Shown here in pieces: positions 24,681 to 63,358 of a stretch of DNA of 64,000 nucleotides. This DNA comes from Escherichia phage vB_EcoM_G9062: the sequence record NC_054920.1. One strand, 5' to 3'. A model generated the notes under the pieces. That model did not search any database. It was not told the origin of the DNA and saw only the letters and a list, made by a program, of their open reading frames with translations. A program made the position numbers and the translations under genes. How positions within the stretch are numbered: position 1 is the stretch's first letter; every line of letters starts with the position of its first letter.

Positions 24681-24734
24681 TCCTCATGTTATGTCAGTAA
24701 GACTACTATAACACAACACGAGGGACTTGTAAAC
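24681..24734 (-). repeat. 54-bp perfect direct repeat, copy A (early promoter plus leader)
   Basis: Identical to 40544..40597 over 54/54 nt. Confidence 0.95.
24705..24734 (-). promoter_or_regulatory. T4-type early promoter (GTTTAC-N18-TGnTATAGT), copy A of a 54-bp repeat
   Basis: Minus strand GTTTACaagtccctcgtgttgtgtTATAGT followed by a leader with GAGGA RBS. Confidence 0.6.
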
Positions 24735-26791
24735 TACATTTTGAACTTTTTAGACATTCCGTTGATGTTAACCAAAGAAGCTAAGATTTGAGAAACTTCG
24801 CTTTCCTCTTCTTTTGATTCTTCTACAAGGAATTGATTAAATCCAGCCATTGGACGAACTTCACCAGTTTCCATTAGATGGTCGCCATCATATACTGATT
24901 CTTCTAATTGTTCAGAAGGAGGAACGATTGTACCTTCGATTAGATACTTGTTATAAGCAGTTTCTTTCATAAAGTAAGTACTTACTTTATTAATCTTCAG
25001 TAAAATTCCACGTGGTAGAATAACTTCAGCTTCTGACGGAAATCCTGATAAATGACCCGGAACGATAACTTTGATTCGCTCAGCTCCTTTAATTACCATA
25101 CCCACGCTAGTTTCAGCATCTTCATTAGCATATGTAGAATGACTACCCATATGCATCAAATCTTCTGCATCAACGGAACCTTCTCCTTCACCAGAAAATA
25201 CTGCGCCGGAATCATCTAGAGCCATATAGTTTTTACCATGCTCACCGAAGATATTTGGTTTAAGCGATGTGGATACGAAGTTCTTGAAATAGAACATTTT
25301 ATTTTCAATGTTATGACGCAAAGTTTTAAAGGTAACTTCTTGTCCACGGTAAAGTGTAGTTCCTGGAGGAAGAACTGAACCTTTAGCGAATGCAGAATCA
25401 AGCGTCTCAATATGTTTAATAGCTCGTTCCATATATTCTTCACGGGTAGAATCTGGTTTACCCAAAAGGAACGAGTTCATTTCAACATATGAATCTGCAC
25501 AATAATCTTCAATTACATCAGATTCAGCTTGAGTTAATCCTTTTGGAGTTACTTCAGTGCTTGCGTATTCATATGCCTGAGCAGCAGATTCATTAATCAA
25601 TTTATAAATGCCATTCATGACAAATTGAATAATAGCTGTCTTTTCATCTGGCGTAGCTTTAGAACCTTTAACCAAATCATTGATAATTTTCTTAATAACA
25701 TCAAAGCTATTAGAAATATTAATATCAGCAAGATCGCTTAAAATTTTATCAGTCTTATAATCAAAGAATTCTTTATTCTTTAAATATTCTTGAGAACCTT
25801 GATATGTTATATCGCTCTGTAACTTGATAGATGGATCACGTAAACGTGCATGGGCTAATGCAATATGATTTCGGAAGCTTTCGAGTTCATAATCACTAGA
25901 TTTAAAACGAGAAGCGCTTCTCATACCGCCTATAGCTCCTTTGCTGAAGTTTGAACCAATTTGAATAACGCCAGAGTTCATTGGTCCTTCTGCTTTATAC
26001 ACCGGAACTTTAGATTCAAACTCTTGATATTTCTTAGCAGCGAAGCTATCACCCTGAAGTGAAGCATCAACAGTAGAATATTGAGCTTGTGCTGCTAATC
26101 GACGACTAATTTTAGTTTTTTGAATAACAGCTTGATCCGTGCGCTTATCATTTTCTAAAGCAATAGAAGCAGCAACAGCGACAGCTTTAGGAACAGCATT
26201 ACCTGTTTTAACATCTACATAAACATCACCGACCTTCGATTCAACTTTTGTGAATAACTCAGTTGAAATAGGAGGTACACCTGGAATGTCTTCTAAATTG
26301 GCATTTTTACGGTAAACCATAATATATGCATACTTTTTATCATAGTCCCAGATTTCCTTTAAAAGAACATATCGACCTGCTCCTTTAGTACGTACTAAAC
26401 GGTCAGCAATAACTTGCATTTGACGAGCAGCGCCATTTGTTTTACTCTTTAGTACGCGGAATAAGCATGCATCAATTTTATACTGTTTCATTGTTTGAAG
26501 AGCAGTATCAAAAACAGCGTTAATGACGCCAATTGGATTTCCACCCAAGTTTCTAAGTTTAACCAGTGATAATTTCTCGTTGACACCTATCATTACGATA
26601 TGCATCATTTTATCGCCCGGCTTAACGTTTTTATTTGTATCACCTCCAGAGGTGTATGTACAAAATCTAAATCCAGGAAGCACGCTTTCTTCGCCGGCTT
26701 GAATAGCAAAAATTTGAGGTATTTTATGCTTAGGATTTAAGTTAACAACCGGCGCCGAAGCGCCGTCAAATAATTCTGTAATAAGTTCCAT
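24734..26791 (-). CDS. Alt-like ADP-ribosyltransferase paralog (second copy)
   Basis: 685 aa; N-terminal ~230 aa closely similar to the adjacent Alt; catalytic R-S-E motifs present (LYRGQ, FVSTSL, EAEVILPRG); central region divergent. Confidence 0.85.
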   Translation of the reverse strand: MELITELFDGASAPVVNLNPKHKIPQIFAIQAGEESVLPGFRFCTYTSGGDTNKNVKPGDKMMHIVMIGVNEKLSLVKLRNLGGNPIGVINAVFDTALQTMKQYKIDACLFRVLKSKTNGAARQMQVIADRLVRTKGAGRYVLLKEIWDYDKKYAYIMVYRKNANLEDIPGVPPISTELFTKVESKVGDVYVDVKTGNAVPKAVAVAASIALENDKRTDQAVIQKTKISRRLAAQAQYSTVDASLQGDSFAAKKYQEFESKVPVYKAEGPMNSGVIQIGSNFSKGAIGGMRSASRFKSSDYELESFRNHIALAHARLRDPSIKLQSDITYQGSQEYLKNKEFFDYKTDKILSDLADINISNSFDVIKKIINDLVKGSKATPDEKTAIIQFVMNGIYKLINESAAQAYEYASTEVTPKGLTQAESDVIEDYCADSYVEMNSFLLGKPDSTREEYMERAIKHIETLDSAFAKGSVLPPGTTLYRGQEVTFKTLRHNIENKMFYFKNFVSTSLKPNIFGEHGKNYMALDDSGAVFSGEGEGSVDAEDLMHMGSHSTYANEDAETSVGMVIKGAERIKVIVPGHLSGFPSEAEVILPRGILLKINKVSTYFMKETAYNKYLIEGTIVPPSEQLEESVYDGDHLMETGEVRPMAGFNQFLVEESKEEESEVSQILASLVNINGMSKKFKM

Positions 26792-26794
26792 GAT

Positions 26795-28846
26795 TTATCC
26801 TTGAACGAACTTGTAAGGCATGTTTGCAATATCTATGCAAGACGCAATAATTCCAAGAGATGATTCTACTTTCTGTTTAACATTTGATGAAACAAATGAT
26901 GCAAAGTCAACTCTATCTTCTATATCACCTGTCATTGTAACCAATTCACCAGTTTCCATTAAATGGTCTCCGTCATAGATTACCGATTCGGTGAGTTCTT
27001 CTGTGGTCATAACTTCAGCTTGAATAAGCTTGTTGTTAGTTTTAACTGTTCCATCATTGTAAGATGCATCGGTTATTTTATTAACTTTGACCATTAATCC
27101 ACGTGGCAAAATGACTTCCATTTCATTTGAAGGTGCTAAACTTCCACCGGGTAAAACAACATTGACCTTATCAGCCCCAGTAATAACCCATCCAATTCCA
27201 ACTAAATTATCGCTAGAATTTACTAGTCCTTCATCAGTTTTATCAATAGAAACACTTAGACGCTTTTCGTCTGGTAAAACACCTACAGATGAATCAGTCA
27301 TCCAAGTACCAAAAATATTTGGATATAATGATGTTGACACAAAGTTTCTAAAATAAAAAACTCGATTTTTTACCATTGCTTCATATATTGAAGGTAACAT
27401 TCGTTGTGAACGATACAAAGTAATACCTTTTGGTAATCGTTCACCATTTTTAAAGGCTGAATCTAAATTATCAATAGCTTTTTCTATGTCAGATGCTGTC
27501 AAAATACTTGTACGCTCATCTGGATTATATAATCCCAAAAGAGCATTATTTATATCTACATATCCTGAACCTACGTATTCACGAATTCCGCGTTTTTGCG
27601 CCGGTGTGTATTTAGATGAATCTTTATTTTCGACTATAGGATGTAATGACCATCCAGCTGTAAGAGCATATCCACGTAATTCTCTTCGAATAATCTTTGT
27701 TTTTATTGCATTCCAAGAATTTTGTACTAACTCATTTGCAGCATCTTGGTTTAAATGCGAATGTTTGTTAATATTTCTTTCAAACCAAGCACCTTTATAT
27801 TTTTCTAAAGTATCATCGACGATAGAAGCAATAGTTTCTAAAGTTTTTATTGAAGTAATAGATTCTTTTCGTAATCTTTCTAAAGCTTTATTTTTTATTT
27901 CTGTATTAACATCAGATTCTTTATCTTCAGGAATTATAGAAGCTTCTCTGAATGCCATTCCAGCTGTAACACTATTAAGAGCATTCTCTAATGCAAATCC
28001 TGAAGTAGAAATAACAGTTAATTCGTTAGCATCGGAAATTAAAGGCGCATCAGCGGGTTTATTTAATTCTGCTGCTGAAGCCTCAAATTTTTGAAACATC
28101 GGTGTTTCAAATCTAGAAGATTCCAATGATTGACTTTGCGCAATTGCTCTACGGGAAATTTTAACTTTAACGATTACAGCTTGGTCAGAACGTTTATCAT
28201 TTTCTTGTGCAATAGATGCTGCAATTGCCTCATTTTTAGTTACTTGAGCTCCAGTATCTTTATTGATATAAACATCACCGACCTTCGATTCAACTTTAGT
28301 AAAGAGCTCGGTACTAATTTCTGGAACTCCTGGAATGTCTTCTAGTGATACATTTTTGCGATGTATAAGAATATATGCATACTTTTTATCATAATCCCAG
28401 AGTTCCTTAAGAAGGACGTATCTGCCGCCTGAACGACTACGGATAAGTCTATCAGCAATAACTTGAATTTGTCGAGCTTGACCAGCGGTTTTAGACTTAA
28501 GAATACGGAGCATACAAGCATCAATTTTATATTGACGCATTGTTTGCATTGCAACAGTAAAAACTGAATTGATATAATTAATTGGGCTTGGCCCAAGACC
28601 TTTCAATTTAGCAATTGAACCTTTAGCGGTTAATGTAAAAGGAACAATATGCATCATTTTATCGCCCATTTTTAAATCGCGATTAGTATCACCTCCAGAT
28701 GTATAGGTACATAAACGAAAGCCTGGCTGTTCAATTGCATCATCAACGTGAACTGAAAAAATTTGCGGTATTTTCTTCTTTGGATTTAAGTTTGTAATCG
28801 GAAGAGTAGTATCTTCGTCAAATAATTCTGTAATGAGTTCCATCAT
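26795..28846 (-). CDS. alt: Alt ADP-ribosyltransferase (capsid-packaged, injected)
   Basis: 683 aa, matches T4 Alt as recalled; R-S-E motifs (LYRSQ, FVSTSL, EMEVILPRG). Confidence 0.92.
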   Translation of the reverse strand: MMELITELFDEDTTLPITNLNPKKKIPQIFSVHVDDAIEQPGFRLCTYTSGGDTNRDLKMGDKMMHIVPFTLTAKGSIAKLKGLGPSPINYINSVFTVAMQTMRQYKIDACMLRILKSKTAGQARQIQVIADRLIRSRSGGRYVLLKELWDYDKKYAYILIHRKNVSLEDIPGVPEISTELFTKVESKVGDVYINKDTGAQVTKNEAIAASIAQENDKRSDQAVIVKVKISRRAIAQSQSLESSRFETPMFQKFEASAAELNKPADAPLISDANELTVISTSGFALENALNSVTAGMAFREASIIPEDKESDVNTEIKNKALERLRKESITSIKTLETIASIVDDTLEKYKGAWFERNINKHSHLNQDAANELVQNSWNAIKTKIIRRELRGYALTAGWSLHPIVENKDSSKYTPAQKRGIREYVGSGYVDINNALLGLYNPDERTSILTASDIEKAIDNLDSAFKNGERLPKGITLYRSQRMLPSIYEAMVKNRVFYFRNFVSTSLYPNIFGTWMTDSSVGVLPDEKRLSVSIDKTDEGLVNSSDNLVGIGWVITGADKVNVVLPGGSLAPSNEMEVILPRGLMVKVNKITDASYNDGTVKTNNKLIQAEVMTTEELTESVIYDGDHLMETGELVTMTGDIEDRVDFASFVSSNVKQKVESSLGIIASCIDIANMPYKFVQG

Positions 28847-28897: not shown

Positions 28898-29084
28898 AAT
28901 AATCTATTGGTAAGAGAGTACGGTATATTTCAAACTTTGGACCTTTTTCATAGGCATCAAATGTTTCTGTGAATTTATTATAAGCATATGCATCTACAAA
29001 TTCGAGAATGACTTGTGATACAGAAGTAGAAACATCTCCACCTTCTTTTTGAGCAATGACAATTGTTTCTAAGTAAGCTTTCAT
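28896..29084 (-). CDS. hypothetical protein
   Basis: 62-aa ORF; ATG overlaps the DNA ligase stop. Confidence 0.55.
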   Translation of the reverse strand: MKAYLETIVIAQKEGGDVSTSVSQVILEFVDAYAYNKFTETFDAYEKGPKFEIYRTLLPIDY

Positions 29085-30544
29085 AGACCAGTTACCTCAT
29101 GAAAATCACCAAATACATCCTCGAATGTATTAGCTTTAGTTTTATCTTCACGTAAACGAATCGCAATCGGAAGAAATAATTTAACGTAATCAGTGCGGCC
29201 ATCAGATTTTAACCAACCGTTGCATTCGCACTCTAGAATTTTTCCAATATAATAATTTTGGTTTTCCATAATGCGAGTACGGTCAAGTTCATGCGATTTT
29301 ACACCGGCTTTATCTTTTAAGCCTGAACCAGCATTTACTTTAATTTTTCCACACTCTGACTCAAGAATAAATCCACCTGCTTTAGTAGGGTCTTTACGGT
29401 GAGGATAAATTCCTACAATTTTTAAATCAACATCAATTACTTCTTTAAATTTATAGAGATTTTTTGAACGAGCATTTTCCCATAATCCATCGATATTTTT
29501 GAGAATAATACCTTCAAGACCTTGGTCAATATACTTTTTATAAATTACCTTAGCTTCATCTAGGTTATTTACTACCTGGTTTTCAATTAAAATTACTTTA
29601 TCATATCCCGATGTCATTTGTTCTAGTTTAGAAAAACGTACATCATATTTTAAACGAAACGCTGGAAGACCGTATATTTCTACCAACGGGACATAATCCC
29701 AGACCTGAAACTTCATACATTGAGCTTCTTTTTCAGAAATGGTTCCTTTTAAGGATTTATTGGCGATTCCATTAGAAGTAGTACGAGATTCCGCTACTTC
29801 GGCGAATTCTTTGGCTTTACTAATTTCAGGATAAGCATCAAAAAGAAAATCTAGGCCTTCTGGTTCCTTTTTAACTTGCTCATGGTATACCAATTCGCCA
29901 TCAATTAACACACCTTCTGGATGAATCTGGCGGGCTTCAGCAGTCATTTTGATTAACTCTTCCTTAAGAAGATCTAATCCTAGATATTCATTACCAGCTC
30001 GTGATAAAAGACGAACATCATCTAATTCATCGCCTCGGACTTCAGCAAAACACCGAGCTCCATCTGCTTTTAACTGCGCAAAGGCTGGAAACTTGATATT
30101 CTTATTAATGCCTTTTTCATCATAAGAACTTGCAAGCATTTGAGGTTGTTCAGGAATTAAACCTGGCCAAACTTTATTTGCAATAGATACTGAAGCACCG
30201 CATTCAAGGTCTCGCATCATAACTCGACGCAAAACTTCAACATCATCCTTTTTACCATCAGTGATATATCCAGTTAATTCCTCAATTGCAGCATTTCCAG
30301 TCAATTTCCGAGTAGCTAACGTGAATTCAATGAAGTCAAGCATATCGGTAATAGTCAGCATTCCAAAACTCTGGGTAGCAATACCCGGTTTAGGCCATTT
30401 CTTGATATAATACTGTAACCCACGAGAATAAGTCAGACGATATACTCGTTTAAGCAATTCATTATCTTTATTCTTTTCAAGAATTGCTTGCTTCTGCTTA
30501 GTTGAACCAATAGATGCTATTTCGTTCAGAATTTTAAGAATCAT
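29081..30544 (-). CDS. 30: ATP-dependent DNA ligase gp30
   Basis: 487 aa, matches T4 DNA ligase; adenylation motif KADGAR present. Confidence 0.95.
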   Translation of the reverse strand: MILKILNEIASIGSTKQKQAILEKNKDNELLKRVYRLTYSRGLQYYIKKWPKPGIATQSFGMLTITDMLDFIEFTLATRKLTGNAAIEELTGYITDGKKDDVEVLRRVMMRDLECGASVSIANKVWPGLIPEQPQMLASSYDEKGINKNIKFPAFAQLKADGARCFAEVRGDELDDVRLLSRAGNEYLGLDLLKEELIKMTAEARQIHPEGVLIDGELVYHEQVKKEPEGLDFLFDAYPEISKAKEFAEVAESRTTSNGIANKSLKGTISEKEAQCMKFQVWDYVPLVEIYGLPAFRLKYDVRFSKLEQMTSGYDKVILIENQVVNNLDEAKVIYKKYIDQGLEGIILKNIDGLWENARSKNLYKFKEVIDVDLKIVGIYPHRKDPTKAGGFILESECGKIKVNAGSGLKDKAGVKSHELDRTRIMENQNYYIGKILECECNGWLKSDGRTDYVKLFLPIAIRLREDKTKANTFEDVFGDFHEVTGL

Positions 30545-30810
30545 TGTTCATCCTTTAGAGTTTGGTTTACAGCTCTATTATAAATCAATTCATCATTAAG
30601 CTCAGTCAAAGACCTGTGGTACGTGGTTCTAACTTTATTTCCTTGCATCCAGTGCTTGACGTAAATGAAACCTTGCTCTACACATTTTTTAAAAATTCGT
30701 TCGTCTTTTTGAGCTCGGAATTCTGGATTGCATCTAAAAAATTGATTTACGTGACCGTAATCACGTGTAGTATTACCTTCATTTTCATAAATAGTGTGAA
30801 CAACAAACAT
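30541..30810 (-). CDS. hypothetical protein (30.1-like)
   Basis: 89-aa ORF, ATG overlaps the upstream stop. Confidence 0.6.
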   Translation of the reverse strand: MFVVHTIYENEGNTTRDYGHVNQFFRCNPEFRAQKDERIFKKCVEQGFIYVKHWMQGNKVRTTYHRSLTELNDELIYNRAVNQTLKDEQ

Positions 30811-31673
30811 TAGAATGCTCCTTGGAAAATATTATCACCACTAGTAAATCTATTAAAATATCCTGCATCACCAGGCTTAGTATAACTCCACGTATGGAAT
30901 GGATTCATATGATACGGGTGTGTATAATATGGATTATATGGATGTGTATAATATGGATTATACGGATTAAATTCAGGAGTTCTCCAGGTAGTGTTCCAAC
31001 GAAAAGAATCGTTTTTAACCATCTTCTCAATTACATCTTTTATAGCTTTTTCACTATCAAAACTTTCTTTATTTTCCTTCGGTGAAAAAAGCTTATTTTC
31101 TACATCATTCCATGTATAAACTCGCTGCGCAGTTTTTGGAATATTGTCACGCTCTCCTCGAGCCATCCAATAAACAGGAACATTTAATATTTCACTCGCA
31201 TGATCGCAGTGGTGGGCGAGATCGTCAATATAACAAATTACATTATATTTCTCTTTTGCCTTTTTGAATAACTCTTCTTTTGAAGAATCATGACCACACA
31301 TCATTACTTCTGAGAAGGCACCAGGAAAAAGAGCATTCAAATTAAATTGACGATTCAGCAGAGCGTCAATAGAATCACCCAATGCTGTAACAGCTACAAA
31401 ATTATAATCTTCTTTTAATTTGTTAATTACACACAGGGCATCTTTATATGGAGACAAGTAACGAATAAAATCTGAACGATTGTATTTTTCAATTAACTTG
31501 ACGCCAAGTTCTTCATCACAATTAAAGAGTTTACCAGGAGAAATAAATTTCTCATCTTGGATCATTTTTAAAATATGTTCTAACGGAAGATTATATTTCT
31601 GAGCAAAATAAGGAAGGCCTGATTGCCAGCTTAAACATACTCCATCAATATCAGTTAAAATAGTAGGCTTCAT
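30810..31673 (-). CDS. HAD-superfamily phosphatase-like protein (30.2-like) with C-terminal PYNPYYTHPY repeats
   Basis: 287 aa; N-terminal ILTDIDGV matches HAD motif I (DxDG); C-terminus has tandem repeats encoded by a 24-bp DNA repeat. Confidence 0.7.
   Translation of the reverse strand: MKPTILTDIDGVCLSWQSGLPYFAQKYNLPLEHILKMIQDEKFISPGKLFNCDEELGVKLIEKYNRSDFIRYLSPYKDALCVINKLKEDYNFVAVTALGDSIDALLNRQFNLNALFPGAFSEVMMCGHDSSKEELFKKAKEKYNVICYIDDLAHHCDHASEILNVPVYWMARGERDNIPKTAQRVYTWNDVENKLFSPKENKESFDSEKAIKDVIEKMVKNDSFRWNTTWRTPEFNPYNPYYTHPYNPYYTHPYHMNPFHTWSYTKPGDAGYFNRFTSGDNIFQGAF
30919..30966. repeat. 24-bp tandem repeat x2 (tgtgtataatatggattata[t/c]gga)
   Basis: Two adjacent units differing at one position, inside the 3' end of the HAD-like gene. 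Confidence 0.85.
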
Positions 31674-32128
31674 AGAGAGTCTCTTAATAGGTTTAACACA
31701 TCAATAAATTCAGCTTCAGTTAGTATTGTATCATCTTTTGTTAGACCACTAGCCATGCTGTGCTTCAAAACTTTTCCTTTCGAGGCTTGTAATGCATCAC
31801 GAAAGCCCTTGTTTTGGATCGCTGCTTCAAAATATGCATTTGTATACAGCTCTTTCCACGCCGGGGAGTATCTTGAAAACGGAACTCCCAGCCAGAAGAG
31901 GGTCCCACGGTCCTGAGCTCTTGCATAAGACCTTCCAGCTTGTTGGGCGGCAAGCCCGGATAACCCAAATATACGACGTTGTTGTTCAGCATTTTTCACC
32001 TTGCATCCTTGGAGGAATCCTTCAAGACCTCCGAATTGAATACCATCCATGACGAAAGGCCATTGGGCGAAATTACTTAATGCACACGATGGCCATCTAA
32101 AATTGCTTCTAATCTCTAACTCAGACAT
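31670..32128 (-). CDS. NADAR/YbiA-like (DUF1768-like) protein (30.3-like)
   Basis: 152 aa from the ATG at 32128 (track starts at a TTG); motif LSNFAQWPFVMDGIQF...LEGFLQGCKV resembles the SNFxxWP...DG...E.xxQxxK pattern of the YbiA/NADAR family as recalled. Confidence 0.55.
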   Translation of the reverse strand: MSELEIRSNFRWPSCALSNFAQWPFVMDGIQFGGLEGFLQGCKVKNAEQQRRIFGLSGLAAQQAGRSYARAQDRGTLFWLGVPFSRYSPAWKELYTNAYFEAAIQNKGFRDALQASKGKVLKHSMASGLTKDDTILTEAEFIDVLNLLRDSL

Positions 32129-32327
32129 TTTCAATACTTATAATTTCAACATCAGCCCAATGACCATAGCAAGGAAGACGAAATTCAACTGGCCAGTTAG
32201 GGTCCTTTTCTAATATAATAGACTTAACTTGTGGTTCTTCATGTTCATCAGTATATGGATTTTTATCTGTTACTTTATATGTGACCTTAATGTACTGAAT
32301 TCCAAAAATCTTATTAATTATATTCAT
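32121..32327 (-). CDS. hypothetical protein
   Basis: 68-aa ORF, ATG start. Confidence 0.55.
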   Translation of the reverse strand: MNIINKIFGIQYIKVTYKVTDKNPYTDEHEEPQVKSIILEKDPNWPVEFRLPCYGHWADVEIISIENV

Positions 32328-32521
32328 ACTAATTCCTTTAATCCGTAAATAGGAGATAATTCATCACCCATACGAAGGTCTTCATTTCCATCTACCCAGG
32401 AAACAATATAAGCCTCTTTTATTTGAATACCACTCCATTTAAATGGAGGTAGAACCTTAGAAATTAATCCAGGTATACCAACTCCCTTTAATTCAACAGT
32501 TTGACCTAAAAAGAATTTCAT
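32324..32521 (-). CDS. hypothetical protein
   Basis: 65-aa ORF, ATG start, overlaps neighbours by 1-4 nt. Confidence 0.55.
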   Translation of the reverse strand: MKFFLGQTVELKGVGIPGLISKVLPPFKWSGIQIKEAYIVSWVDGNEDLRMGDELSPIYGLKELV

Positions 32522-59558: not shown

Positions 59559-62525
59559 ATGGCTACTTTAAAACAAATACAATTTAAAAGAAGCAAAACT
59601 GCAGGTCAACGTCCTGCAGCTTCAGTATTAGCCGAAGGTGAATTGGCTATAAACTTAAAAGATAAAACAATTTTCACAAAAGATGACTCAGGTAGTGTTA
59701 TAGAATTAGGTTTAAAATATGGAGGAACTATAAATGGATCTTTAGAGGTTACAGAAAATATAACTGGAACTTTAATTGGAAATTCTAGTACAGCTACTAA
59801 ATTGCAAACACCTAGGAAAATTAATGGTATATCTTTTGATGGATCAAAGGACATTACACTAACTCCATCTGATATAAATGTAAATAGTACAACGTTTATA
59901 AAAAATAACGGCGAATTACCTGTTGATGCTAATTTAGATGAGTATGGGCCTGTTGAAGAATATCTTGGAGTTTGGTCGAAAGCAACTTCAACCAACGCTC
60001 AACCAGCAAATAAATTTCCAGAAGAAAATGCTGTAGGTGTTCTAGAAGTATTTGTGGCCGGTCAATTTGCTGGTACTCAGAGATATACAACTAGATACGG
60101 AAATGTTTATATTCGTTCCTTGACTGCTACATGGAACGGAGTAAACGGTCCGTGGAGTGCGTGGCGAAATATTCAATCTGGTACTCGTCCACTGTCAACA
60201 ACGATTGATCTTAATGATCTAGGAGGCGCTGAACACCTTGGTTTGTGGCGAAATAGTTCAAATTCCATTGCTACCTTTGACAGAAATTTCCCAGAAGAAG
60301 GATCGTCCGCTCAAGGACTTTTAGAAGTATATGAAGGTGGAAACTATTCTCGCACACAGAGATATACGACCAGATTTGGTGTTGTTTATACTCGTTGTCT
60401 TGCTGCTGCGTGGGATGCTTCTGCGCCTAAATGGGGACCTTGGCAACAAGTCGGTAATGTCACACCGGCGACTTTCTATGACGGAGATCTGAATGATTTT
60501 AAAACTCCTGGGTTATATAATATTTTAGGCACTGATGCCGTTATTAACTGTCCTACCGGTGAAGGTTTGCCGACTGTTATTGTTGGTTTGCTGGAAGTTA
60601 AACAGCGTGCTTCTGGCGGTGCTATTTTCCAAAAATTTACTACTGCCGGAACGGGTGCAACTACTCGCGATCGTATTTTTGAGCGTGCATATACTGGTGG
60701 TGTGTGGGGTGCATGGAACGAAGTATATACATCTTATTCTCTGCCAATTACTTTGGGTATGGGTGGTATTAAAACTCAATTAGCGGAGCTAGACTGGCAA
60801 ACCTTTGATTTTGTTCCTGGTAGTATGTTTAGTGTTCCTTTGAACAAAATAAAGAACATGCCAGCAAATATGGATTGGGGTGCGATTGACGGAAACTTGG
60901 TTATGTTTTCTGTCGGTCCTAGCGAACACACTAGCACAGGGCGTACTGTTCAGGTTTGGCGTGGTACTGTATCCCAGACAAACTACCGTTATTTTGTCGT
61001 TCGTGTGTTCGGTAATTCTGGAAATAGAACTTGCACAGTTCGCCGTGTTGTTCTTGAAGACGGATCACATACTTGGACTGCTAAACAAGATTTTAATGGC
61101 GCAGTTAATTTTAACTCTACTGTTAACCTTAATAACACTACCACATTTAAAACAGAAGTTAAATTTCGCGCATTGAATGCGTTCCGCCTGTATGGCGGAA
61201 AATTTGGTACATTTTTCCGTAATGATGGAGAGAGTCTTTATATTCTTTCCACCGACGAAGATGATCAAGATGGAAACTTTAACACAAATAGACCTTTCCG
61301 TTATGAATTAAGAACTGGTGATGTTACTTTGGGTGGTACTAGTGGTGCTAACGTTTTAAAATTAAAACGTGATTCTCTCACCGCATTTTTTGGTGGTGAT
61401 ATTAACATGAAAGGCTTGATGACTTTTGACGCCGGACGTTTAGGATCACGAGATTATTTTAAATTTAACCATTGGGGTGATAGCAATAACGCTCGTGATA
61501 ACATTATTCAGTTAGAAGATAGCAAAGGCGTTCATTTTTCCACTGAACGTACTTTAGCGACTGGTGCAATTAAGACTAAATTTTTTGGTGAAGTTGAATC
61601 CGAAGGTAGATTGATTATTAAACGTCCGGGTGATTCTATTGTATTATCAACAACTGCTAGTAATTCTTTGCATATTCGCGGTGATATAGACGGGACTGGT
61701 AACTGGTATATTGGTAAAGGTGGTGCTGATAATGGATTAGCGTTCTATAGTTATGCTACTAATGCTGGTGTATACATTACAAACGCAGGAGATATCTCGC
61801 TAAGTCCAAAGGGTGCCGAAATGGCTCAGGTCAATAACGTTCGATTATATGTTCATGGTGAACGTTGGACTGCTAGTCAACCAGGTGATTGGGGTAGTCA
61901 GTGGCAAGTGGAAGCGCCAATATTCGTCGATCATGGTTATGTTGGACCAGATAGCTATTATCCAATTATTAAAGGAAGAAGTGTAATCACCAATCAAGGG
62001 TTTGTAACTGCCGTCGATCTTGGTATTCGTCGTGTCAATAACAATTGGGGACAAGCAATTATTCGTGTTGGATCTGCGGAGGCATCGCCAGCGGCTGGAC
62101 ACCCTAACGCGATATTTGAATTTCATTACGACGGTACTTTCTATTCTCCTGGTAATGGTAACTTTAACGATGTGTATATTCGTTCCGATGGTCGACTTAA
62201 GATCAATAAAGAAGAGTTAGAAAACGGAGCACTTGAAAAAGTATGCCGACTGAAAGTTTATACATACGATAAGGTTAAGTCTATTAAAGATCGTAGTGTT
62301 ATTAAACGTGAAGTTGGTATTATTGCTCAGGATCTTGAAAAAGAATTATCAGAAGCTGTATCTAAAGTTGAAGTTGATGGATCTGATGTTCTGACAATTT
62401 CTAACTCCGCTGTAAATGCTCTTTTAATTAAGGCTATCCAAGAAATGAGCGAAGAAATTAAAGAATTAAAAACGCCTTTCTTCACTAAAATTGCTCGCAA
62501 AATTAGTAATTATTTTAAATTCTAA
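59559..62525 (+). CDS. 37: long tail fibre distal subunit gp37 (T2-type, with C-terminal intramolecular chaperone)
   Basis: 988 aa; conserved N-terminus; C-terminal ~112 aa after the motif [13 protein letters not shown] resembles self-cleaving intramolecular chaperone domains. Confidence 0.9.
62187..62522 (+). other. predicted C-terminal intramolecular chaperone domain of gp37, removed by autocleavage
   Basis: S-D-x-R-L-K type cleavage motif at codons 62184-62201 (S|DGRLK). Confidence 0.5.
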
Positions 62526-62544: not shown

Positions 62545-62557
62545 TTTGGAGAAAATT

Positions 62558-63358
62558 ATGGCAGTAGTTGGTGTTCCCGGTTGGATTGGAAGTTCATCCG
62601 TAAATGAAACAGGACAACGATGGATGAGTCAAGCAGCTGGTCAATTAAGATTGGGTGTTCCTTGCTGGATGAGCCAATTCGCCGGACGCTCAAGAGAGAT
62701 TATTCATACTGTAAGTGCTAATCATAATTTTAATGGTCAGTGGTTCCGTGATAGATGCTTTGAAGCTGGCGGTGCACCCATTGTATTCAATATTGTTGGT
62801 GATATCGTTTCTTATTCTAAAGATGTGCCACTTTTCTTTATGTATGGGGATACGCCTAATGAATATGTTGTTCTTAATATTCATGGTGGTGTTCATATGT
62901 GGGGTCGTGGTGGTAATGGTGGATACACTCACTCAGGAGGCGACGGTAACGGTACACAAGGCGGTCATGTTATTCAAAATGATATCGGTGGACGGCTTCG
63001 TATTTGGAACTACGGTGTTATAGCTGCTGGTGGTGGCGGTGGTGGTGGTATTGCATATCGTCCACACTCAGGGGCAAACTGGCAAGATATCGGTGGCGGT
63101 GGTGGTCGACCTTTCGGTGGCGCTGGCGGCGGCGGTTATTCCGGTGGTGCTGCTTCGTATGAAGGTCCGGGTGGTGGTTATGACTATGGTAACGCACACT
63201 CCGGCGCTGGTGGTAATGCTGGTGCTTCTGGTCAGAATGCATGGTCTGACGGCGGTAAAGTTCTTAAAGTTGGTGTTGGTGGTGCGTCTGGTCATGCAGT
63301 GTTTGGATCTTCTCCAACTTGGGGTGCTGTTGGAACAATTTACGGACCAAGAGTATAA
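62558..63358 (+). CDS. 38: receptor-recognising adhesin gp38 (T2-type, glycine-rich motifs)
   Basis: 266 aa from the ATG at 62558 (track starts at a TTG); conserved N-terminus [13 protein letters not shown]; C-terminal half has poly-Gly stretches (GGGGGGG, GGGGG) separated by short variable segments. Confidence 0.88.

Follow-up and report, generated by a model that had tools for sequence, protein, structure and literature searches.

We analyzed a 64,000-nucleotide stretch of the genome of Escherichia phage vB_EcoM_G9062 (NC_054920.1), hereafter called the window, which is of the Tequatrovirus (T4/T2-like) type. Two real open reading frames of the minus strand, genes 30.3 (31670..32128) and 30.2 (30810..31673), belong to a tightly packed string of early genes on that strand that extends from gene 30.6 to alt.1. 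Pfam searches, identity to T4, and AF2/Foldseek comparisons identify gene 30.3 as adfN, encoding a putative DNA ADP-ribosylglycohydrolase of the gp30.3 subfamily of the NADAR superfamily. The protein is 152 residues long when read from its ATG; the mechanically defined reading frame starts at a TTG two codons upstream, at position 32134. The 287-residue product of gene 30.2 is composed of a predicted N-terminal HAD-superfamily phosphatase domain of about 200 residues with a four-helix C1-type cap (31074..31673, minus strand), and a C-terminal extension formed by a helix (residues 207–220) and a disordered tail (30810..31073, minus strand), which was delimited using the AF2 model, alignment A1, and comparison to T4.

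In the direction of transcription, gene 30.3 is followed by genes 30.2 and 30.1, the ligase gene, alt.1, and the alt pair, all of which are encoded by the minus strand. Gene 30.1 (30541..30810) belongs to the DUF3045 family (Pfam PF11243, E = 2.9e-64), and gene 30 (29081..30544) encodes an ATP-dependent DNA ligase (PF01068 DNA_ligase_A_M, E = 1.2e-32). The ADP-ribosyltransferase gene alt (26795..28846, 683 residues; PF03496 ADPrib_exo_Tox, E = 1.1e-35) is accompanied by a second full-length paralogue (24734..26791, 685 residues; PF03496, E = 5.9e-20), and the two proteins are 41% identical (BLASTP). The original prediction described genes 30.3 and 30.2 as lying downstream of a ligase and two ADP-ribosyltransferases. 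The alt pair and the ligase gene are indeed nearby, but genes 30.3 and 30.2 are located upstream of them.

On its other side, adfN adjoins gene 30.4 (32121..32327, minus strand), which encodes a 68-residue protein without a family match and whose last 8 nt, with the stop codon, overlap the beginning of adfN. The neighbors of adfN are gene 30.4 and the HAD-encoding gene 30.2, and the cluster contains no DarT-like gene, in agreement with the literature, where AdfN is described as an orphan antitoxin. The stop codon of gene 30.3 and the start codon of gene 30.2 overlap as ATGA, and translational coupling is predicted; similarly, the ATG of gene 30.1 overlaps the stop codon of gene 30.2 within TAATG. 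Overlapping start and stop codons are common to the whole eight-gene chain from 30.6 to alt.1, and the ATGA overlap is therefore not specific to genes 30.3 and 30.2. An internal out-of-frame reading frame of 75 residues within gene 30.3 (31765..31992, minus strand; ORF list), annotated in T4 as 30.3', is probably a by-product of the raised G+C content of gene 30.3. Scans for promoters and terminators between 28.8 and 34.7 kb gave signals no better than those of shuffled controls. Elsewhere in the window, a G+C peak at 62.8–63.1 kb was considered as a site of tRNA genes; a tRNA search found none, and the peak corresponds to the gene of the glycine-rich gp38 adhesin.

Gene 30.3 and the ADP-ribosylglycohydrolase AdfN

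The gp30.3 protein is 99% identical to T4 gp30.3, named AdfN (150 of 152 residues), has the same length, and its gene occupies the same place between genes 30.4 and 30.2. The two substitutions, A47 instead of valine and M124 instead of isoleucine, are conservative, and nothing suggests that they cause a functional difference from T4 AdfN. The Pfam family Phage_30_3 (PF08010) matches residues 13–152 of the 154-residue reading frame with a score of 234 bits (E = 5.4e-70), above the cutoff of 36. The pattern SNFxxWP...DG...E.xxQxxK, from which the protein was originally assigned to the NADAR/YbiA family, is present exactly, in the segment L-S18-N19-F20-AQ-W23-P24-FVM-D28-G29-IQFGGL-E36-GFL-Q40-GC-K43. 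The protein carries E36, Q40, K43, and H123, none of which varies across the family alignment. H123 is located in a predicted β-strand (residues 120–124, AF2), in agreement with the histidine that serves as the last-strand catalytic residue of the gp30.3 subfamily (PMC11125620). The C-terminal helix is intact, since the protein is full-length and residues 138–151 are predicted to be helical (AF2). Gene 30.3 of phage RB69 is 414 nt long, compared with 459 nt in the window, and the frameshift allele of RB69 is defective and lacks the C-terminal helix (PMC11825919).

The sequence similarity of gp30.3 to YbiA and other NADAR proteins is marginal. YbiA is the top match in the PDB, with E-values of 1.3 for the single sequence and 0.054 for the profile, and the Pfam NADAR/DUF1768 family gave no match at E ≤ 1. 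Structure prediction was therefore needed. The profile search against the PDB also returned noise matches, to P450 and GH25 proteins. The AF2 model of gp30.3 (pLDDT 82.5, pTM 0.81) has the α+β fold of NADAR proteins, with core helices and flanking small β-hairpins. In a Foldseek search of the PDB, the top three matches were Escherichia coli YbiA (2b3w; E = 1e-4, probability 1.0) and NADAR proteins from Geobacter lovleyi (8bat, probability 0.96) and Phytophthora (8bau, probability 0.98). Beyond these three solved NADAR structures, no match exceeded a probability of 0.06. The NADAR assignment of the original prediction is borne out by these matches and by the near-identity to T4 AdfN.

Like YbiA, the NADAR antitoxins of the DarG1 type, which are associated with DarT1 (8bat), share with gp30.3 the fold (probability 0.96–1.0) and the active-site signature SNF…DG…ExxxQxxK. 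According to published work (PMC11825919, PMC11125620), the reaction, hydrolysis of guanine-ADPr, would likewise be common to them. The DarG1-type proteins are paired with DarT, whereas gp30.3 is an orphan; the last strand carries a histidine in gp30.3 and an aspartate or glutamate in DarG1-type NADARs and YbiA. Unlike the DarG1-type antitoxins, T4 AdfN fails to rescue uninfected cells from DarT1 (PMC11825919, PMC11125620).

The T4 protein has been characterized. AdfN shields T-even phages from DarTG1, its substitutions E36A and K43A weaken the rescue, and the purified protein, alone, strips DarT1-made ADP-ribose from guanine in DNA in vitro (Johannesman et al. 2025, PMC11825919). Hydrolysis of guanine-ADPr by T4 gp30.3 in vitro was also reported elsewhere (PMC11125620). 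The reversal of nucleic-acid ADP-ribosylation that had been suggested for this locus is thus an activity demonstrated for T4 AdfN (PMC11825919, PMC11125620), and the proposed experiment, in which a deletion mutant would be plated on hosts carrying DarT-like toxins, has effectively been carried out with T4: deletion of adfN renders the phage sensitive to DarTG1 (PMC11825919). Plasmid-borne AdfN(T4) restores the growth of RB69 on DarTG1 hosts, but AdfN(T4) works fully only in T-even infection and may require another T-even protein (PMC11825919). From the sequence identity, we infer that gp30.3 of the window is AdfN and would counter DarTG1 by removing host-added ADP-ribose from phage DNA. This role is already known, as it was published in 2024–2025 for the essentially identical T4 protein. 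The idea of a NADAR protein near Alt that reverses host ADP-ribosylation is correct but, given those publications, yields nothing new.

Predicted phosphatase domain of gp30.2

The gp30.2 protein begins with MKPTILTDIDGV, and the HAD motif I sequence ILTDIDGV recognized in the original prediction therefore occupies residues 5–12. The motif is conserved across the family. Residues D8, D10, and G11 of motif I (D8-I-D10-G-V12) do not vary in an alignment of 34 sequences, and in one of 72 homologues their conservation is at least 90%. T96 of motif II and D150-D151 of motif IV are at least 90% conserved, and K132 of motif III is invariant in both alignments. Motif I thus has the two aspartates typical of phosphotransferases, and the invariance of the second, D10, rules out a dehalogenase.

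The AF2 model of gp30.2 has a Rossmannoid HAD core predicted with pLDDT above 90. A Foldseek search gave 98 PDB matches at E < 1e-3; all among the matches listed are HAD-type, and some of the lowest rmsd values belong to the deoxyribonucleotidases cdN, mdN, and 3bwv. The cap follows motif I and is formed by predicted helices 16–26, 32–40, 46–49, and 54–65. The invariant W16 aligns with an aromatic residue in the DGVLADFESGL segment of cdN. In the structures of cdN and mdN, this aromatic residue presumably stacks on the base.

The relationship of gp30.2 to nucleotidases is transitive: the protein's own sequence lies below the thresholds, and the link rests on its relatives and on the predicted structure. 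The single sequence gave nothing usable in the PDB, the sole match being a spurious one to RanGAP (E = 1.6), and did not reach the gathering threshold of Pfam NT5C (PF06941). Among 72 relatives, however, 22 match NT5C at E < 0.01, 11 match HAD_2, and 10 match Hydrolase. At least two relatives exceed the 24.8-bit cutoff of NT5C (P0210 with 30.1 bits and L089:4950-5567 with 28.5 bits). A first family profile (A1) was too weak, matching cdN with an E-value of 0.098, and a broader profile (A3) was therefore needed. The A3 profile matches 3bwv, a putative 5'(3')-deoxyribonucleotidase, over the full length (E = 3.5e-6), and the yeast nucleotidase Sdt1/SSM1 (E = 3e-4). Profile searches, proposed earlier for both proteins, thus gave a match of gp30.3 to PF08010 and of the gp30.2 family profile to 3bwv, but gp30.2 of the window itself has no Pfam or NCBIfam match.

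Short motifs could arise by chance; those of gp30.2 and gp30.3 are meaningful because they are near-invariant across each family and are accompanied by the results of fold searches with predicted structures. The catalytic residues of both proteins, the HAD motifs of gp30.2 and E36, K43, and H123 of AdfN, are all present. The assignment of gp30.2 to the HAD superfamily is upheld by the four conserved motifs, the predicted fold, and the nucleotidase match of the family profile. We conclude that gp30.2 is a genuine, predicted HAD-superfamily phosphatase, most likely one that acts on small molecules of the nucleotide type.

The closest known counterparts of gp30.2 are the NT5C enzymes, comprising human cdN and mdN and 3bwv from Staphylococcus epidermidis, which have the HAD core, the four-helix cap, and the DxDGV sequence as in gp30.2, but lack its C-terminal extension of approximately 85 residues. 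Phage T5 encodes Dmp, annotated as a deoxynucleoside-5'-monophosphatase that degrades dNMPs. Judged from the motif DLDGT near its N-terminus, Dmp may belong to the HAD superfamily. As a homologue of gp30.2 it was rejected, since hhalign gave a probability of 1.7%, Pfam gave no match, and only the motif is common to both; Dmp is at most an analogue of gp30.2. The literature that we searched contained no published function for gp30.2. Its placement as a divergent, NT5C-like HAD phosphatase of the nucleotidase type defines a concrete panel of assays.

Genomic distribution and proposed roles of AdfN and gp30.2

The gp30.2 protein occurs in over 1400 T4-like phages with sequenced genomes, and its family comprises more than 1300 cluster representatives. 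In genome records, gene 30.2 was found in 1437 and gene 30.3 in 1509, with the same breakdown by genus. We compared the gene order at 76 IMG/VR loci and 11 GenBank loci, grouped into 33 lineage clusters. The ligase gene is located at most 600 bp downstream of gene 30.2 in 27 of the 33 clusters and is its conserved downstream neighbor across Straboviridae. In 10 clusters, among them that of the distant Acinetobacter phage ZZ1, genes 30.3 and 30.2 are at most 1.3 kb apart and keep a common strand and order; in the other 23, gene 30.3 is absent from the 5 kb around gene 30.2. In phages phiR1-RT and Cronus, gene 30.3 is located in the tRNA region, with no homologue of gene 30.2 within 6 kb. Distant homologues of gene 30.2 outside the T4 group have as neighbors genes for clamp-loader, PhoH, exonuclease, dCMP deaminase, and UvsX proteins, and the homologue in a Vibrio schizo-T4 phage adjoins nadV. 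The proposed module of HAD, NADAR, Alt, and ligase proteins does not hold up against these counts, with gene 30.3 near gene 30.2 in 10 of 33 clusters versus 27 for ligase, and an obligate ADP-ribose module of 30.3, 30.2, Alt, and ligase is not supported.

It is likely that gene 30.3 encodes AdfN, which acts in counter-defence against DarT1, and that gene 30.2 encodes a nucleotide-type HAD phosphatase tied to ligase rather than a dedicated partner of AdfN. The DarT1 toxin of the host would ADP-ribosylate guanine in phage DNA, and AdfN, as a stand-alone NADAR enzyme, would hydrolyze the N-glycosidic link and release ADP-ribose, so that replication could proceed. This role is suggested here by the identity to T4 and by the intact E36, K43, H123, and C-terminal helix. 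The gp30.2 protein would be a Mg2+-dependent phosphomonoesterase with D8 as the nucleophile, D10 as the general acid/base, T96 and K132 as phosphate ligands, and D150/D151 as metal ligands. Its four-helix cap would cover the active site in the manner of 5'(3')-deoxyribonucleotidases, and the enzyme may dephosphorylate a small nucleotide-like substrate in the DNA or nucleotide metabolism of the phage. Gene 30.2 would be an old component of T4-like genomes co-inherited with the ligase gene, and adfN a more mobile gene whose position beside gene 30.2, in Tequatrovirus and in a small number of other lineages, is a matter of chance.

The proximity of ligase could also mean that gp30.2 is a DNA 3'-phosphatase resembling the HAD domain of T4 Pnk/PNKP, which readies nicks for sealing. 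The reading frames of genes 30.2 and 30 often overlap or nearly abut one another in the 27 clusters, a weak PHROG match links residues 74–177 of gp30.2 to the polynucleotide kinase family (E = 1.2e-3), and one relative matches Pfam HAD_PNKP (E = 0.003). Nevertheless, we consider this function unlikely. A cap inserted after motif I typically marks HAD enzymes in which a small substrate is enclosed, and phosphatases of the Pnk type have none; gp30.2 has a predicted four-helix cap at this position (residues 12–75). The best sequence-profile matches are nucleotidases and not PNKP, and T4-type phages already encode PseT/Pnk. Gene order conserved among T4-like genomes may be a result of vertical inheritance, so the adjacency to ligase is weak evidence that says little about the function of gp30.2.

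Alternatively, gp30.2 and AdfN could be partners in processing ADP-ribose or substrates derived from NAD, with gp30.2 acting, for example, on ribose-5-phosphate or AMP from Nudix-cleaved ADP-ribose, on NMN, or on ADPr-phosphate, or gp30.2 could be the T-even factor that AdfN(T4) needs to be fully active. The nearly identical genome sets of the two genes, together with the ATGA overlap, make a functional link possible, and their collinearity in ten clusters and the nadV neighbor in the Vibrio phage are consistent with it. The match of the family profile to Sdt1/SSM1 points in the same direction, as the yeast nucleotidase also acts on NMN. Furthermore, gene 30.2 is intact in RB69, a phage that AdfN(T4) rescues, and the portion of the T5 genome that was searched, only the first 50 of its 122 kb, contains no match to the 30.2 family. 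Joint action is rather improbable, however, because the two genes are apart in 23 clusters and in phiR1-RT and Cronus, start/stop overlaps are generic to the 30.6–alt.1 chain, and ADP-ribose, the product of AdfN, contains no phosphomonoester that a HAD phosphatase could cleave. AdfN is active alone in vitro (PMC11825919, PMC11125620), and many other T-even-specific genes could provide the missing factor. With regard to the published puzzle of the T-even restriction of AdfN(T4) (PMC11825919), gp30.2 is a candidate that would be cheap to examine, but a long shot. It is very improbable that gp30.2 is this factor or, in a weaker version, that it removes a phosphorylated product of ADP-ribose or NAD and so forms a two-enzyme counter-defence cassette with gene 30.3. 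Most lineages show no linkage of the two genes, and the family resembles nucleotidases in replication contexts.

C-terminal tail of gp30.2

The tail of gp30.2 is rich in proline, tyrosine, asparagine, histidine, and tryptophan, is predicted to be disordered (AF2 pLDDT below 50 for residues 226–287), and ends in the semi-conserved peptide …NRFTSGDNIFQGAF. Comparison of tails in columns 230–452 of alignment A1 showed that they are lineage-specific, and many homologues end at about 200–220 residues. The presence of a semi-conserved peptide after a disordered linker, and the fast variation of the tail, would fit a HAD-fold scaffold or adaptor that has no catalytic activity and functions through its tail and C-terminal peptide, but the four catalytic motifs are near-invariant across hundreds of diverged relatives and many homologues have no tail at all, which makes such a scaffold highly implausible.

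The T4 homologue of gp30.2 (NP_049815, annotated as a hypothetical protein; PHROG 420), whose gene is similarly located upstream of gene 30.1 and ligase, is 90% identical overall and near-identical over residues 1–225. It is composed of 278 residues, compared with 287 in the window, where the tail has one extra repeat and a diverged terminal segment. A 24-nt tandem repeat within the tail-encoding region (30912..30967; 2.3 copies, 90% matches, TRF score 98) codes for the additional YNPYYTHP unit and explains why the BLASTP alignment shows 10 inserted residues relative to T4 gp30.2.

Locus of genes 30.2 and 30.3

The 24.7-36.1 kb region of the window corresponds to the alt - 30 - rIII - 31 - cd segment of Tequatrovirus, and all of its genes in the ORF list are on the minus strand. 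Positions 30500-32400 match 692 phage records in megablast, with a best identity of 98.2% and Escherichia phages ES12, ES26, and 132 as the best records. The gene order is that of the T4 reference annotation (alt, alt.1, 30, 30.1, 30.2, 30.3, 30.4 to 30.9, rIII, 31, cd), which also places 30.3' inside 30.3. Gene 30.2 (30810..31673, minus strand) encodes 287 residues and gene 30.3, or adfN (31670..32128, minus strand), 152 residues; both are real and carry the motifs described in the original prediction. They are flanked, as had been noted, by two Alt-type ADP-ribosyltransferases and an ATP-dependent ligase. However, the pair had been placed downstream of these genes, whereas by the direction of transcription the ligase and alt genes are downstream of 30.3 and 30.2. 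The start or stop codon of every gene from 30.6 to alt.1 overlaps its neighbor by 1-8 nt, and the ATGA overlap of 30.3 and 30.2 is therefore shared along the string rather than special to the pair. The two tandem alt paralogs (24734..28846, minus strand; 685 and 683 residues, 41% identical) are full-length, unlike in T4, which kept a single alt and the remnants alt.-1 and alt.-2. Both contain an ADP-ribosyltransferase domain. Acinetobacter phage ZZ1 carries three alt-like ORFs.

Gene 30.3 encodes the anti-DarT factor AdfN

The gene 30.3 product of the window is full-length and identical to T4 gp30.3 in 150 of 152 residues. The literature now calls T4 gp30.3 AdfN, short for anti-DarT factor NADAR (Johannesman et al., Nat Commun 2025, PMC11825919). 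Chimeras of T2 or T4 with RB69 traced DarTG1 resistance to its gene; AdfN is required for the resistance of T4, and plasmid-supplied AdfN alone suffices to rescue RB69. The E36A and K43A substitutions and an RB69-type C-terminal truncation weaken AdfN, and purified AdfN strips ADP-ribose from DNA that DarT1 has modified (PMC11825919). Independently, gp30.3 was shown to hydrolyze guanine-linked but not thymine-linked ADP-ribose in vitro, with a catalytic histidine in the last strand as the hallmark of its subfamily (Toxins 2024, PMC11125620). The proposed NADAR identity and reversal of nucleic-acid ADP-ribosylation are thus correct, and this main point is already established in the literature. 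The construct 'E. coli T4 phage NADAR (gp30.3)' in Methods 4.2 of PMC11125620 is listed as residues 1-208, versus 152 residues in the T4 reference genome and in the window; it may include a tag or derive from another phage.

Residues E36, Q40, K43, and H123, among them the catalytic positions sought, are present in the window protein and invariant in ten aligned family members. Gene 30.3 matches Pfam Phage_30_3 (E 5.4e-70), and the Pfam scan gave no NADAR match. The AF2 model (pLDDT 82.5) matches YbiA (E 1e-4, prob 1.0) and the NADAR crystal structures 8bat (prob 0.96) and 8bau (prob 0.98) in a Foldseek search of the PDB, with no other match above prob 0.06. Sequence comparison with YbiA is marginal (E 1.3 and E 0.054); because such links to cellular NADARs are marginal, records still label gp30.3 'hypothetical protein'.

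Gene 30.2 encodes a predicted HAD phosphatase

Pfam and NCBIfam scans of gp30.2 gave no match. In PHROGs, it belongs to phrog_420 (unknown function) and weakly matches a polynucleotide-kinase family and a family named phosphoheptose isomerase. None of the 100 homologs returned has a precomputed Pfam domain; a few are named at source as, for example, 'HAD-superfamily hydrolase' or '5'(3')-deoxyribonucleotidase', and a literature search found no paper on gp30.2. The HAD call stands. D8, D10, and G11 of motif I (DxDGV) and K132 of motif III are invariant in a 34-sequence alignment, conservation is at least 90% at T96 (motif II) and D150/D151 (motif IV), and the pattern is kept in a 72-sequence alignment down to ~20% identity. 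A dehalogenase reading was dropped, as the invariant second aspartate of motif I indicates a phosphotransferase. An exhaustive profile search gave 1372 cluster representatives at E<=1e-3, and sampled members match the Pfam families NT5C (22/72), HAD_2 (11/72), and Hydrolase (10/72). The 72-member profile matches 3bwv over the full length (E 3.5e-6) and yeast nucleotidase Sdt1/SSM1 (E 3e-4).

The AF2 model of gp30.2 has pLDDT >90 over roughly residues 1-190 and contains a four-helix insertion after motif I, a C1-type cap. Foldseek returned 98 PDB matches at E<1e-3, all HAD-type among the matches listed; those of lowest rmsd include cytosolic and mitochondrial 5'(3')-deoxyribonucleotidases and the S. 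epidermidis deoxyribonucleotidase-like 3bwv. We place gp30.2 among the HAD phosphatases, in a divergent branch that is nucleotidase-like (NT5C-related); its catalysis is predicted. The remaining interest lies in an abundant HAD family lacking a domain model, for which the assay panel is now well defined.

After the core come one more helix (207-220) and a disordered tail (30810..31073) with many Pro, Tyr, Asn, His, and Trp residues; in this tail, a 24-nt repeat (30912..30967) is expanded relative to T4. The tail ends in a peptide (…Y-L-N-K/R-x-T-A/S…) that recurs in loose form in other Tevenvirinae homologs and may be a docking motif. Phage T5 Dmp, a deoxynucleoside-5'-monophosphatase (L013 124..858, minus strand), also lacks a Pfam match; its N-terminal IWDLDGTI resembles HAD motif I, beyond which comparison with the gp30.2-family profile showed no likeness.

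Linkage of gene 30.2 to the ligase and to adfN

By tblastn, 30.2 occurs in 1437 and 30.3 in 1509 phage records with nearly alike genus breakdowns; therefore, both genes are widespread in T4-like phages. Among GenBank loci from diverse genera, 30.3, 30.2, and the ligase are contiguous in T4 and ZZ1, and 30.3 is located 0.7-1 kb upstream in Cronobacter phage leB and Proteus phage Pm5461. It was not found within 5 kb in Salmonella SEA1, Klebsiella AmPh_EK29, and Aeromonas AhFM11. In 76 IMG/VR loci forming 33 clusters at ~80% identity, the ligase is at most 600 bp downstream of 30.2 in 27 clusters. Gene 30.3 is near 30.2 in 10, immediately adjoining in five and 51-1300 bp upstream in five.

As a rival reading, gp30.2 could be a Pnk-like DNA 3'-phosphatase working for the ligase, which is favored by this conserved adjacency and by structural likeness to the Pnk phosphatase core. 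The four-helix cap and the nucleotidase-type profile matches argue against it, and little can in any case be drawn from gene order that is conserved among T4-like genomes. The functional coupling to AdfN advanced in the original prediction is unsupported, since 30.3 is missing within 5 kb of 30.2 in 23 of the 33 clusters, the free ADP-ribose released by AdfN has no phosphomonoester, and AdfN is active alone in vitro. In favor of coupling, full activity of T4 AdfN is confined to T-even infections (PMC11825919), which leaves room for a T-even partner. Gene 30.2 is also intact in RB69. An obligate ADP-ribose module is not supported on the same grounds, and the coupling as such is very unlikely.

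Four distant non-T4 relatives of 30.2 are surrounded by clamp-loader, PhoH, exonuclease, dCMP deaminase, and UvsX genes. In Vibrio phage TCU-VP03-AIR1, a Schizotequatrovirus, a gp30.2-family homolog about 36% identical (L011 5001..5573) does not adjoin a ligase gene. On one side it is divergently transcribed from a short hypothetical ORF and from nadV, for nicotinamide phosphoribosyltransferase, and on the other it is flanked by radical-SAM genes. The same record has a second 30.2-like place.

Composition and mobility of adfN

G+C content in the window peaks most strongly (up to 0.53) where a T2/T6-type gp38 adhesin gene (62546..63358, plus strand), directly after long tail fiber gene 37 (59559..62525), encodes its glycine-rich C-terminal part; a search for tRNA genes at this peak found none. 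adfN is a local outlier (GC 0.436, GC3 0.359; within the top 4% of 459-nt windows) relative to its immediate neighbors 30.1-30.5 (GC 0.30-0.36, GC3 0.16-0.28); 30.6, further upstream, has GC3 0.333. This composition fits a relatively recent acquisition, and a DarG1-like origin was suggested in the published AdfN work. The same composition is probably also why the out-of-frame ORF 30.3' (31765..31992) is open. In Tegunavirus and Roskildevirus, the adfN homolog is within a tRNA gene cluster, apart from the ligase region (Yersinia phage phiR1-RT, L002 6001..6450; Erwinia phage Cronus, L003 5998..6441), with no 30.2 homolog within 6 kb. Therefore, the gene has moved within T4-like genomes.
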